From NCBI GenBank assembly GCA_964645535.1, contig CAZYCQ010000083.1, forward strand, positions 1-10,196: 10,196 nucleotides of DNA. The letters run 5' to 3'. Made by a program: the position numbers and the translations under genes. Below, one piece after another: positions 5,624 to 9,367 of the stretch; position 1 is the stretch's first letter; each line of letters begins with the position of its first letter. Below the pieces are notes generated by a model. The model did not search any database, was not told the origin of the DNA, and worked only from the letters and a program-made list of their open reading frames with translations. This DNA comes from an uncultured archaeon. Its GTDB lineage: Archaea > Asgardarchaeota > Heimdallarchaeia > Heimdallarchaeales > Kariarchaeaceae.

Positions 5624-5713
5624 CCATAAAAATGAATACGGACGCTTTGTCAAGAGACAGGGGGTGTTAAGCGAAAGTATTTTTTGCTTGTTTTTTCAAC
5701 TTGCCGCAGAAAT
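5624..5713 (-). promoter_or_regulatory. Conserved promoter/operator upstream of the radA operon (copy 1)
   Basis: Plus-strand blocks CCATAAAAAT (5624-5633), ACGGACGCTTTGTCA (5638-5652), GAAAGTATT-N4-GCTT (5673-5689) and TTGCCGCAGAAAT (5701-5713) recur in the same order at 9279-9367. The first block reads ATTTTTATGG (TATA-like) on the coding strand. Confidence 0.75.
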
Positions 5714-6007
5714 ATTTTCTTGCGTCTAGTTATTTGTTATTTATAATTTATACAATTGGTATCTTTTCTTCTTAAGGCCAACAAAATCTTGCGTTTGTCC
5801 CAACGTAACTGTGTGGTGTTCACCAATGTCTCGCCCTTCACCATATCCTTTTCTTTGAAAGGAATTACCACCTAATCACCAAAATCAGATTCTACAATTT
5901 CTGTATATGGGTTCTCCTCCTTCGTGGCTTGAAGATTCCATTACGATCAAAATGAACCACCTCTTTAGTAGGGAATCTGTTTTGATTTGCCACATTCAAG
6001 GTAAATC

Positions 6008-8551
6008 TCAGAGAAATGATGTCAAAGAAATTGCAGCAGGTTCCTCTAACTTGTGTTTCATTGTTGGGGGTAATTGCAATCCAAACTGGTGAATTATGCT
6101 TTCCATCAAGTCAAGAAAGACTCGATCAAGATATTCCATGTACCAAATCCGATCATAAGGGCTTGAGCTTGTAAGCTCATCTGCGAGAAGAACCCGATCA
6201 ATTGTACGAGATTTGTCGTTTTTGATAATGAATCTCATGTTTTCCCCTGCTCTCACGCGCTTTCCGAAATGAAGATAACGTTGTGCTGCAAGGGCTTGTA
6301 CAGTATTTGACGTATATTCTTCAGGACTCTTGCCACATCGCATCTTGAAAACAAGATCCCTTGGATTTACAAGTCCCTTGGCTATCCGTTCCTTCCATTC
6401 TTGCAAAATGTCCAGTAAATCCTGAAATTGAGCAACTATGGCTTCGGGACTTTCAAGTCTGCTCATGCGTGTCAATATCTCCTCCTGGAGCTTTTTGGCA
6501 ATGGGAGGGGTGGAGTGTTGCCTTGAAAATATCCCTCGGATCTTGTAGTTGCCATCATCGTATGCACCATAATAGCGATTGAGTGCGGAAATCTCCTTGT
6601 GATTTTTTATATTGGTGAAAACAATCCATTTGAAATGCCCATCCACATTTATTGCAAATCCCGTCTTAAGCGAAATTTCACGGATTAATGAAGCAATGTT
6701 CTCAAATGAATTGTACTTTGGATTAGTTGCCTGAATGAAGAGCGAATCAGTAAGGCCTGCAATGGTTCGGAAACCAAAATCCCTGCAGATGGCCTGGGCA
6801 TCCCTAAGATATTTCCGTGCATATGCCGTAACTGCCTGATGGCTTTCAATTGAGCCAAAACGTGCATTCTTGAAACCTAAATAGCCAAAACAACTGACAA
6901 GTATCCACTTCAGAGATTCATCAATTCCCTTGAAACGTTTTTTGATGATTGGATTTGAACATGATTTCTGAAGGTACTTGTAAAAAAGCCGTTTTTCCAG
7001 AATCAACTGCATAGTGAGTGGTACGATGCCCCGCCGTCTAATGCAGACATGATAATCAATTTCTGGAACACGAAGGCCATCTTCTTTGCAGCACTCACAA
7101 AGAACCGTTTCTGAACTAATGTTATGCTTGAGCATGATGGAAGGATAGAGGGACGCAAAGTCAATCCCCCAAACATCTGCATAAATACCCGGAATTGCGG
7201 GATAGGTAATGCCACCATTATCTGCAACAAGCAGCATTTCTCCAGGCTTAAACTGTTCACCTTTCGCCTTTCCTTTTGGAATGAGTATCGGAGGAGAACT
7301 GTTGGCTGCAATCATGAATTCAATTGAAGTCAGAACAGTTCCTATGGTATTCCGAGCACACCTGTCTGGGGGAATACCACCTAGGCGACTCAATTCTATC
7401 ACCCCAAAAAGACCGGAATCGCTGAAAAAGTGGGAATTACGTTGATCTATGTGTATTCGTCCGGGAATATAGATCGGCAAATTCTTTCGGTGGATACGAC
7501 CATAGCTGTAATACGACTGGGCTTCCGTGTTCAGGGGAATGCGAGAATGCAAACGACCAAGATTAATCTGCATGTTCAGGCGCAAGGCACGATTCTGCAG
7601 ATAGGGTAATGTAAAGCTGTCTCCATCAACCACGATGAGGATATCCGGATCGAAATGCTGTACGATGAAGTTAAGAAAATAAATGGCAGAGCTTTCATCA
7701 AATTGCCCCTCATCCGCTGTAGCTACATAATCATTGGGAAAAAACGCCTCAACCATTGTCTGAAAGGCGTGAAGTTTCCTGTTTGTTTGAGGAGTTATGG
7801 TCTCCCACACATCATAGGATCGGAAAAGAGGAACTACAGATGGAACCACATTCAGCCGATATGATTGGATATCATCATCATCCCGTATATGAAGTGCCTC
7901 AAGAACCGTGTGAGGGGTCAGATCAACACGTTCTACAGGATTGATGGCATTAAGATCCACATCAAGAAATTGGTGGGAAGTGAAGAGGTCGATGTCAATC
8001 GAGGCGATCGGATCATCGAACGTAGGAAATGGTTGATTGGATGGAACAAAGGGTATGACAGATATCTTAAGTACTTTCAGGGGAACTATTTCATAGAATG
8101 GATCCCGTGGATTTTCAAGCATTTCTATTTTGAATTCGCCACGTGAATCAACCTGAATCTTACATTTACCTAAAGGGAATGAACCAGTATCCTGAAAAAA
8201 TTTTTCTCGGGGATGCAAATCTGTATTGTATAGAGGAAGCCTTAATTTTCCAATTGACTTGACTGCCCTTTCGAACTTGTTGGGAGATCTGACATGGATT
8301 TTCAAGACAGGGGAAGGATGAGGTGACTCATTTGACACAAATGCATGAATTTGCTCCACATGGCGTATTAGCGAATGCTTGCGGAGCTGTGAAAGAAGAA
8401 AAGGAACCCGTGAATATCCAGAAACATCCATATAGAACACAGGATGGTACCTCAGCCGCAGATGATGAATCTCTCTTCTCTCATCCTTGAGCCAAAGATG
8501 AGTATATTCATCCCGGAAATGAATGTTAACTATCCAACCAATCAGTTCCAT
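6008..8551 (-). CDS. polB2: Family B DNA polymerase, PolB2 (Dpo2-like) subfamily
   Basis: Motif A DFASLYPS (aa 464-471), NISSETVLCECC...VPEIDYHVC Cys cluster, motif B variant LKWILVSCFGYLG, motif C with first Asp lost (AGLTDS), degenerate exonuclease motifs, YYSYGRI..GRIHID; adjacent to an inactive RadA-like gene as in known polB2 operons. Confidence 0.93.
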   Translation of the reverse strand: MELIGWIVNIHFRDEYTHLWLKDERREIHHLRLRYHPVFYMDVSGYSRVPFLLSQLRKHSLIRHVEQIHAFVSNESPHPSPVLKIHVRSPNKFERAVKSIGKLRLPLYNTDLHPREKFFQDTGSFPLGKCKIQVDSRGEFKIEMLENPRDPFYEIVPLKVLKISVIPFVPSNQPFPTFDDPIASIDIDLFTSHQFLDVDLNAINPVERVDLTPHTVLEALHIRDDDDIQSYRLNVVPSVVPLFRSYDVWETITPQTNRKLHAFQTMVEAFFPNDYVATADEGQFDESSAIYFLNFIVQHFDPDILIVVDGDSFTLPYLQNRALRLNMQINLGRLHSRIPLNTEAQSYYSYGRIHRKNLPIYIPGRIHIDQRNSHFFSDSGLFGVIELSRLGGIPPDRCARNTIGTVLTSIEFMIAANSSPPILIPKGKAKGEQFKPGEMLLVADNGGITYPAIPGIYADVWGIDFASLYPSIMLKHNISSETVLCECCKEDGLRVPEIDYHVCIRRRGIVPLTMQLILEKRLFYKYLQKSCSNPIIKKRFKGIDESLKWILVSCFGYLGFKNARFGSIESHQAVTAYARKYLRDAQAICRDFGFRTIAGLTDSLFIQATNPKYNSFENIASLIREISLKTGFAINVDGHFKWIVFTNIKNHKEISALNRYYGAYDDGNYKIRGIFSRQHSTPPIAKKLQEEILTRMSRLESPEAIVAQFQDLLDILQEWKERIAKGLVNPRDLVFKMRCGKSPEEYTSNTVQALAAQRYLHFGKRVRAGENMRFIIKNDKSRTIDRVLLADELTSSSPYDRIWYMEYLDRVFLDLMESIIHQFGLQLPPTMKHKLEEPAAISLTSFL

Positions 8552-8560
8552 AAATGTCCC

Positions 8561-9259
8561 TCAAAAGAAATCATTGAGTGTCAACTGCTGAGTAGGTACC
8601 TTTCTGACTGGATTTCCTGAAAATTGGTATTCTGTAGGAGGAAGAAAGGGATGGGAAATCAATTGATCAAGCCAGGTATTTTCAGCTATCCGTTTCTGAC
8701 GTACATGAATCTTGCAAATTGACTGGATAGGATTGTTCTGGGTGACATTGTCTGTCAGAATGATAGTGGCTCCCTTGACGGCCATTTGTTGCAGAAGCCG
8801 AGTTGATTGAACCAAAACAGTTTCAATGCCCGGATAGGAATCTTCCTCGATTGCCTGTCTAAAAAGGGAGAAGAAAGAAGGTGCAAGAAGGAGATGTGAA
8901 GGACCATTGATATCCTTTGCAACGTTTTGTACCAGTGAAAGACTTTGAAGTACTTGAAAAGGACGGGCTAACGATATCCTCTCGAGAATATCAGATGTAT
9001 CCAAATCACCTGCGTATTGATCCAAAAGAAATGGATTGAAAGAGTTGGAAGAATCGATGACCGAGATTTTCCAGTTATGGACATATGCATCCAACAGTAC
9101 AGAATGCATGGCCTTGTTCAATGCCTTGATATCCTCGCTCTCAATGAGATGAACATTTCCGACCAACCAATCCGTAAACAGACGATAAATGCGAGGAAGG
9201 GTTCGAGGGTTAACTTGGAGTCCCTTATTAGACAGAAACGCTGCGGAAACCAGCATCAT
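8561..9259 (-). CDS. Inactivated RadA-like protein associated with PolB2, with C-terminal PIP box
   Basis: RecA-fold remnants VIDSSNSFNPFLL and ILERISLARPFQVLQ (compare YIDTEGSFRPER and ILNRIFVGKAPSTEKQ in the RadA of this window); no Walker A, Walker B Asp lost (LLLAPS); ends QLTLNDFF; 9 bp upstream of polB2. Confidence 0.8.
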   Translation of the reverse strand: MMLVSAAFLSNKGLQVNPRTLPRIYRLFTDWLVGNVHLIESEDIKALNKAMHSVLLDAYVHNWKISVIDSSNSFNPFLLDQYAGDLDTSDILERISLARPFQVLQSLSLVQNVAKDINGPSHLLLAPSFFSLFRQAIEEDSYPGIETVLVQSTRLLQQMAVKGATIILTDNVTQNNPIQSICKIHVRQKRIAENTWLDQLISHPFLPPTEYQFSGNPVRKVPTQQLTLNDFF

Positions 9260-9278
9260 ATCTAGTAAGGTGTCTCAA

Positions 9279-9367
9279 CCATAAAAATCCCCCACGAATG
9301 TTTTGTCACTAGGCAGAGAGAGAGCCTTGTGAAAGTATTCCAAGCTTAACCCCTTTGATGCAGAAAT
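9279..9367 (-). promoter_or_regulatory. Conserved promoter/operator upstream of the inactive radA-polB2 operon (copy 2)
   Basis: CCATAAAAAT (9279-9288), ACGAATGTTTTGTCA (9294-9308), GAAAGTATT-N4-GCTT (9331-9347), TTGATGCAGAAAT (9355-9367). The TATA-like block lies about 22-28 nt upstream of ATG 9259, fitting a leaderless archaeal transcript. Confidence 0.75.

Follow-up and report, generated by a model that had tools for sequence, protein, structure and literature searches.

A promoter element resembling the Sulfolobales DNA damage-responsive element upstream of two repair operons in a Heimdallarchaeial genome

Background

Two DNA repair operons on one contig of an uncultured archaeon of the family Kariarchaeaceae (Heimdallarchaeia) have similar upstream regions, which raises the question of what these regions share and which protein may read it. 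Heimdallarchaeia are the Asgard class usually placed nearest the eukaryotes. The stretch analyzed, hereafter the window, is the whole contig CAZYCQ010000083.1 (C83; 10,196 nucleotides) of assembly GCA_964645535.1, the 3.6-Mb source genome (G000); relatives are numbered from G001, and f and g numbers denote families and genera. Both operons lie on the minus strand, one with iRadA and polB2 and the other with a radA paralogue as first gene. A preliminary description had interpreted the shared regions as a four-block motif of about 90 bp, selected for protein binding. We found that the functional unit is a 20-bp element, formed by block 3 and part of the spacer behind it, and not the 90-bp region. 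The element resembles the DNA damage-responsive element (DDRE) of Sulfolobales, and its likely reader is an Orc1-2 orthologue.

To our knowledge, the only experimentally defined archaeal DNA damage regulon is that of Sulfolobales. Sun et al. (PMC6061795) described a 20-bp consensus, AATAGTTTCRGWDTACTCWS, in damage-induced Saccharolobus promoters, which is footprinted by Orc1-2 and required for induction. The targets include dpo2, tfb3 and orc1-2 itself, and after damage the protein activates repair genes and represses replication genes (PMC6061795; see also PMC9738581 and PMC12490963). Whether Orc1-2 proteins elsewhere act likewise was left open. The literature searched, with incomplete coverage, contained no report of a DDRE/Orc1-2 regulon in Asgard archaea; the element and the type of regulator are already known from Sulfolobales.

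Results and discussion

The element shared by the two promoters

Positions, match scores and spacers of the four blocks proved to be as first described. Block 1 is identical in the two copies (10/10), block 2 agrees at 12/15 positions and is followed by AGRCAG, block 3 (5673-5689 and 9331-9347) agrees at 13/17 and block 4 at 11/13, with spacers of 4/5, 20/22 and 11/7 nt. The local-alignment score of the pair (51) was equalled by 5 of 40,000 random pairs of upstream regions, which places it beyond chance, and, of 1,291 upstream regions, that of iRadA matched the radA copy best, self-matches excluded. When the 20-mer and the TATA box were masked, the remaining similarity had p = 0.03; the block-2 region alone gave p = 0.0055 and the block-4 region p = 0.11, which is not significant. 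The signal in the pair stems from the TATA box, from block 2, and from block 3 together with its tail. The patterns of blocks 2 and 3, as first written, occur at these two places only in the genome. The motif is not a dispersed repeat, a possibility considered earlier, because searches with the 115-bp copies (blastn and nhmmer) found no third full copy across the genome.

The orthologous upstream regions of relatives, a comparison already proposed, separate the parts of the motif. In G001, G002, G003 and G007 a 9-bp core is invariant, is followed by a pyrimidine tail and stands at a fixed distance to TTTTAT. This conservation bears out the idea of selected protein-binding sites rather than plain duplication, and the equal offset of TTTTAT in the orthologues agrees with the TATA position given to block 1. 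The iRadA-polB2 element, which starts 52 nt upstream of the TATA box and 80 nt upstream of the start codon (ATG), is conserved in G001, G002 and G007, and the radA-paralogue element, starting 49 nt before the TATA box, in G001, G002 and G003. In G001, radA and iRadA are transcribed divergently from either side of a 200-bp gap with two inverted copies of the element, each facing its own gene and TATA box; orientation follows the gene. The consensus across 69 intergenic sites of relatives is AATACTTTCRGTNACCTCTC, partly shaped by the search pattern. The CTCTC-like tail, formerly counted as variable spacer, is part of the conserved site. Neither block 4 nor the GCTT of block 3 is present in the orthologous promoters, and a four-block unit is not supported. 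The relation of block 3 to the ANTTTC element of Sulfolobales, suspected earlier with the caution that a 6-mer could match by chance, is not fortuitous, because 15-18 of the 20 positions in the published consensus are matched. Helical phasing relative to the TATA box, with clusters near +28-35 and +49-54, is suggestive and not significant.

Block 2 has a more limited distribution. Its ACAA core, often followed by CGT, was found at 11 of 83 Heimdallarchaeia sites and at none of 54 other archaeal sites, the bearers being those of genus g1 (that of the source genome), those of family f4 and one more. When the genome was scanned for block 2 by itself, the genes found formed no coherent set; the block may represent a second, local input. 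Block 4 occurs in the window only, being absent from all other sites compared, and is probably due to chance or a relic of promoter copying in a rearranged region.

A leaderless start is predicted near 9259-9262 for the iRadA-polB2 operon, while the radA operon may start near 5603-5607, followed by a conserved GAGGA leader word before the ATG at 5587; GAGGA is also retained in the G002 radA orthologue. Rfam gave no match at E values up to 1, and the blocks sit upstream of the TATA box, a position that does not fit a structured RNA leader. Two other readings of the sites were discarded. A sigma-70 promoter scan gave matches at chance level and is irrelevant for archaea. An origin recognition box (ORB) does not fit the sites, which are single, asymmetric and located in promoters; no ORB-like match (dyad TTCCA..GGAAA with G-string) was found on the contig.

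Distribution and targets of the element

The source genome was scanned with a matrix built from ten sites of relatives only. Seven matches exceeded 20 bits and were followed by a gap in the scores, versus 0-3 such matches with column-shuffled matrices. Two are the sites of the window. All seven lie upstream of or between genes, in a genome that is about 16% non-coding. The others precede genes for proteins of 107, 431 and 631 aa and form a pair on contig C12; the G001 orthologues of the 107-aa and 431-aa genes are also preceded by a site, and the C12 pair is also paired in G001 and G003. The earlier remark that the motif does not stand upstream of other genes holds within the window, but elsewhere in the genome there are at least five further strong copies of the core. 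The motif-bearing genes at C55:1594-4828 (631 and 427 aa), C39:7534-8829 (431 aa) and C31:30792-31116 (107 aa) are candidate lineage-specific repair factors; ESM Atlas searches for two motif-bearing targets of unassigned function gave nothing usable. At C12:34895-34990 (L133:5896-5991) two strong sites stand in tandem on either side of a TATA box; they are directed away from a small zinc-ribbon gene and run antisense into the end of a gene. A divergent TFB paralogue has a degenerate copy upstream, and good sites are found before its orthologues.

Among 61 relatives, the pattern with one mismatch was present in 46, well above the reversed control. An exact scan of 400 Asgard genomes gave 39 matches, against 2 for the reversed pattern, and in an exact scan of all prokaryotes 63 of the 80 matches listed were archaeal, many in Hadarchaeota. 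Kin are not independent, and these counts show spread and are not a basis for p-values; submitter taxon labels are unreliable for some loci (L408 and L432). Downstream genes in the relatives include iRadA/polB2 (10 sites), the RadA paralogue (4), the TFB paralogue (4), uvrA (3), tnpB (3) and cdc6, and those in the wider archaeal scan (Hadarchaeota and others) include radA, uvrA, rpa, mcm, DUF763, tnpB and cdc6. In the 400 Asgard genomes the strict pattern is absent from the Hodarchaeales-type family f5 and the large family f20. All four f5 polB2 operons examined have a variant with an ATTTTC core and the same tail, 71-81 nt upstream. This family (L044, L045, L046 and L048) combines the variant site with an Orc1-2 with altered helix and longer wing, a possible co-evolution of site and reader.

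Several sites lie near mobile elements or replication genes. The element occurs upstream of TnpB (IS200/IS605) genes in Heimdallarchaeia and Hadarchaeota (L227, L235, L254, L404, L425, L460 and contig ends of G048), and one G048 repeat has at least six copies, which suggests damage-inducible mobile elements. In genus g11 (L152, L155, L156, L159 and L161-L165) its distance to an ORB-like box, which lies on the opposite strand, is about 30 nt; this is possibly a regulator site at a replication origin. In family f6 (L226 and L234) it lies between the orc1-1 gene, which has ORB-like boxes upstream, and a GINS gene. The source genome itself has two ORB-like boxes at a contig end (C28:42072 and 42196), a candidate replication origin.

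The candidate reader

Three Orc1/Cdc6 genes are present in the source genome, that at C50:17025 being Orc1-1-like. The product of C50:8125-9345 and Sulfolobaceae Orc1-2 are reciprocal best hits (226-239 bits, against 108-127 bits for the remaining two paralogues), it lies within the Orc1-2 half of a quick tree, and the helix-turn-helix (HTH) gene downstream of it is shared with Sulfolobaceae Orc1-2 (E about 2e-9). Its helix PRKHTQ keeps R353, K354 and the phospho-switch residue T356, and R381 is also retained. A comparison with Aeropyrum ORC2 (1W5S) did not discriminate the three paralogues, whereas Sulfolobaceae sequences did. In five Sulfolobaceae genomes, a matrix made from Heimdallarchaeia sites only gives 8-19 bits to a site that lies 70-71 nt before orc1-2, versus at most 3 in the upstream regions of orc1-1 and orc1-3. 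An exact scan with the Saccharolobus 18-mer gave mostly bacterial chance matches; seven of the matches listed were archaeal, including two uvrA and two orc1-2 promoters.

The sites fall into two word classes: most targets have AATACTTTCR, whereas the main radA and both orc1-2-like genes have TTCACTTT[CGT]A upstream. Upstream of the orthologues of C50:8125, the full strong word is found in G005 and four f6 genomes, and the TTCACTTT variant in families f1-f4, including the source genome. There the variant has five non-coding matches, three of which precede the two orc1-2-like genes and the main radA; the main radA of most relatives is likewise preceded by it. Two related long RadA genes of the source genome (C20:5728-7026 and C5:40141-41397) share 79% identity and have extended N-termini, and only the C20 copy has a variant site.

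Proposed mechanism and alternative explanations

The motif with its position, conservation and targets, the orthology and binding residues of the regulator, and the variant site in the regulator's own promoter make it likely, in our view, that an Orc1-2-activated DNA damage regulon controls both promoters. Binding, activation instead of repression, the damage signal and the start sites are carried over from Saccharolobus. Each promoter would be activator-dependent, a 20-bp asymmetric DDRE standing upstream of a TATA box without a canonical, purine-rich transcription factor B recognition element (BRE). The reader would most likely be C50:8125-9345, a non-initiator Orc1/Cdc6 protein of the AAA+/winged-helix type. 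After DNA damage, active Orc1-2 may bind both sites and help to recruit TBP, TFB and RNA polymerase. This would co-induce a split PolB2 mutasome, with iRadA and PolB2 in one operon and the PPB2 copies behind the RadA paralogue. Orc1-2 may also up-regulate its own gene, the main radA and the TFB paralogue through variant sites.

Several observations weigh against such a regulon. The tail consensus is partly circular, because the search pattern was derived from these same sites. The two sites of the window are about 20 nt further from the TATA box than many others, several strong targets in the source genome have no assigned function, and in relatives some sites stand before unrelated genes or before an origin-like box. 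The grouping of C50:8125 with Sulfolobaceae Orc1-2 comes from a quick tree search (support of 89% by the Shimodaira-Hasegawa-like approximate likelihood ratio test, SH-aLRT). In Saccharolobus, R381 and R383 carry specificity (PMC9738581, PMC12490963), and residue 383 is Asn in the C50:8125 family. The orc1-2 promoter of the source genome has a variant word only, TTCACTTTGA, unscored by the main matrix, and no site was found upstream of some Orc1-2 orthologues (two Hadarchaeota, several Thermoproteota and Hodarchaeales). Finally, there is a second Orc1-2-like branch, the C12 gene, whose recognition helix differs and whose promoter has the same variant word.

This C12 paralogue, or another regulator, could be the true reader of a real 20-mer, or the strong and variant words could have different readers. 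The existence of two word classes and the location of the paralogue 3 kb from the two best-scoring sites speak for this, but the paralogue has neither the PR[KR]HTQ helix nor the syntenic HTH gene. Moreover, both word classes serve the same gene, because the strong word is carried by orc1-2 promoters of the Gerdarchaeales type and of G005. We regard another reader as unlikely. Somewhat less likely still is that Orc1-2 reads the site in a regulon that follows the replication or cell-cycle state, or is repressed, and is not damage-induced. This would agree with the sites found between orc1-1 and the GINS gene, upstream of mcm, upstream of an Orc1-1-type gene and, in one genus, some 30 nt away from an ORB-like box. 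However, radA, iRadA-polB2 and uvrA dominate among the targets, a site placed upstream of the TATA box fits activation, and Saccharolobus Orc1-2 itself acts on both kinds of genes after damage, in opposite directions.

Among the candidate binders named earlier is the local protein of the radA operon with putative ribbon-helix-helix (RHH) units (206 aa); in this reading the whole four-block element would be its operator. The protein occurs in G000, G001 and G002, whose radA/iRadA promoters have block 2, while G003 lacks both. It cannot read the widespread core, because it is found in only 3 of 61 genomes, versus 46 of 61 for the core. In addition, block 4 is not conserved, a block-2-like word is present in family f4, where the protein was not found, and the structure model, of low confidence (pLDDT, the predicted local distance difference test score, of 56), has helix pairs and gave no fold match. 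This explanation is very improbable for the whole element; the protein is a possible reader of block 2. The least probable explanation, a functionless relic of promoter duplication during local rearrangement, would agree with the decayed gene copies at 66-73% identity on the contig, the sharing of block 4 here only and an operon order that differs from G001 and G002, but it is largely refuted for the core and explains at most block 4, as in three other species the two promoters are found apart from each other, each with the core, and the core marks repair genes across phyla. The Orc1-2-activated regulon remains our preferred explanation.

Genes of the two operons

The coordinates of the promoter elements and genes are given in Table 1. 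The two operons together encode one complex, as iRadA, PolB2 and PPB2 are the predicted parts of the PolB2 mutasome; the iRadA family, the iRadA-PPB2-PolB2 prediction and the pattern of duplicated PPB2 were described previously (PMC11791011). iRadA is directly upstream of polB2 in G001, G002 and G007, motif C of PolB2 is GLTDS, and homologues of the PPB2-like protein adjoin polB2 in G047, G051, G059, G014 and G018. Profile searches found no family match for the 87-aa protein.

The surroundings are rearranged. A decayed gene-junction copy with stops (the end of a 170-aa open reading frame and the end of a glyoxalase gene; 9930-10149 against 2425-2642, 73% identity) brackets both repair operons. 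The stretches at 9515-9804 and 5764-6012 are broken remains of two genes with intact counterparts on contig C43 (66-68% identity). Since the one at 5764-6012 corresponds to the gene that follows polB2 in G001 and G002, the polB2 operon seems to have been moved or imported together with pieces of its flank.

Table 1. Promoter elements and genes of the two repair operons (window positions)
Feature	Position	Strand	Remarks
DDRE-like element, iRadA-polB2 promoter	9320-9339	-	24.4 bits (relatives-only matrix); 16/20 to Saccharolobus consensus
DDRE-like element, radA-paralogue promoter	5662-5681	-	22.9 bits; 15/20 to Saccharolobus consensus
Block 1 (TATA box), iRadA-polB2 operon	9279-9288	-	Sequence; TTTTAT at equal offset in orthologues
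Block 1 (TATA box), radA operon	5624-5633	-	Sequence; TATA retained in G002 orthologue
Block 2, iRadA-polB2 promoter	9294-9308	-	Between DDRE and TATA box, extending to BRE position; lineage-limited secondary element
Block 2, radA promoter	5638-5652	-	Basis as for 9294-9308
Block 4, iRadA-polB2 promoter	9355-9367	-	Common only to the two copies of the source genome
Block 4, radA promoter	5701-5713	-	Same status as 9355-9367
iRadA	8561-9259	-	232 aa; inactive RadA/Rad51-like PolB2 partner; C-terminal PCNA-binding motif; weak Rad51 match, E 0.006
PolB2-type B-family DNA polymerase	6008-8551	-	847 aa; Pfam DNA_pol_B; best NCBIfam PRK05761.1-2 and -4
RadA paralogue	4682-5587	-	301 aa, no N-terminal domain; intact Walker A; Rad51 E 3e-74, PRK04301 294 bits
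87-aa helical protein	4429-4692	-	Probable PPB2 paralogue without MGRT
PPB2 (arCOG07300)-like small protein	4227-4454	-	MGRT start; third subunit of PolB2 mutasome
206-aa helical protein	3623-4243	-	Last gene of radA operon; RHH-like by eye only

Wider significance

The presence of the element and its likely reader across many archaeal groups suggests an ancient archaeal counterpart of the bacterial SOS response. Orc1-2 has been inferred for the last archaeal ancestor (PMC3914693), and therefore an ancient regulon is plausible; Thermococcales and Thaumarchaeota are among the lineages without Orc1-2. A broader proposal, to which we give slightly less than even chances, is that an SOS-like regulon, controlled by one Orc1-2-read element whose lineage variants all preserve A-N-TTTC-R and the CTCTC tail, goes back to that ancestor and has been retained in the Asgard class nearest the eukaryotes. 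The Sulfolobus DDRE and the orphan Halobacterium ultraviolet (UV) motif would then be one and the same kind of site, TnpB/IS200-605 elements would be linked to the damage signalling of their host, and the element would extend to replication origins. A matching site, a regulator candidate and a target list are now available for Heimdallarchaeia, Hadarchaeota and others, motif-bearing genes of unassigned function become candidate repair factors, and the findings bear on the role of Orc1/Cdc6 proteins before the eukaryotic origin recognition complex arose.

Comparison with known systems

The closest system is the Sulfolobales DDRE. Eleven of 12 sites compared here match its consensus at 15-18 of 20 positions and one at 13, with orthologous sites reaching up to 18/20. 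Both systems have a 20-bp asymmetric site upstream of the TATA box. As in Sulfolobales, the putative targets here include the PolB2 (dpo2) operon, a TFB paralogue and, by way of a full or variant site in part of the genomes, orc1-2. The Orc1-2 orthologue retains R353, K354, T356 and R381, and its gene is followed by the same HTH gene. They differ in position 5 (C here, not G), in the distance to the ATG (80-94 nt here, versus the reported -23 to -55), in wing residue 383 (Asn here) and in the extra block 2. No ups or ced targets were identified here, the TFB paralogue is full length, and targets elsewhere include uvrA, rpa and tnpB.

In Halobacterium, a UV-B motif, TTTCACTTTCA, was reported upstream of radA1, and no regulator was identified there (PMC2556686). 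The 11-mer is found exactly in the orc1-2 variant word of family f4, upstream of the TATA box, and the main radA variant of the source genome is within one or two mismatches of it, but in Heimdallarchaeia the variant word is followed by a CTC-rich tail.

The predicted iRadA-PPB2-PolB2 mutasome operon (PMC11791011, PMC8764526) has all three components here, with a clamp motif on iRadA and a duplicated PPB2, one copy of which has MGRT. Unlike in that operon, the genes are divided between two transcription units with a common promoter element, and the PPB2 genes follow an active RadA paralogue.

In bacteria, the SOS box read by LexA is a single type of site linking a recombinase, uvrA, an error-prone polymerase, the regulator's own gene and mobile-element genes. 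The system described here differs in its asymmetric site, its predicted activator and an unrelated AAA+ regulator, and the parallel is one of analogy only: its element links the same types of genes, from recombinase, uvrA and error-prone polymerase to the regulator and mobile elements.

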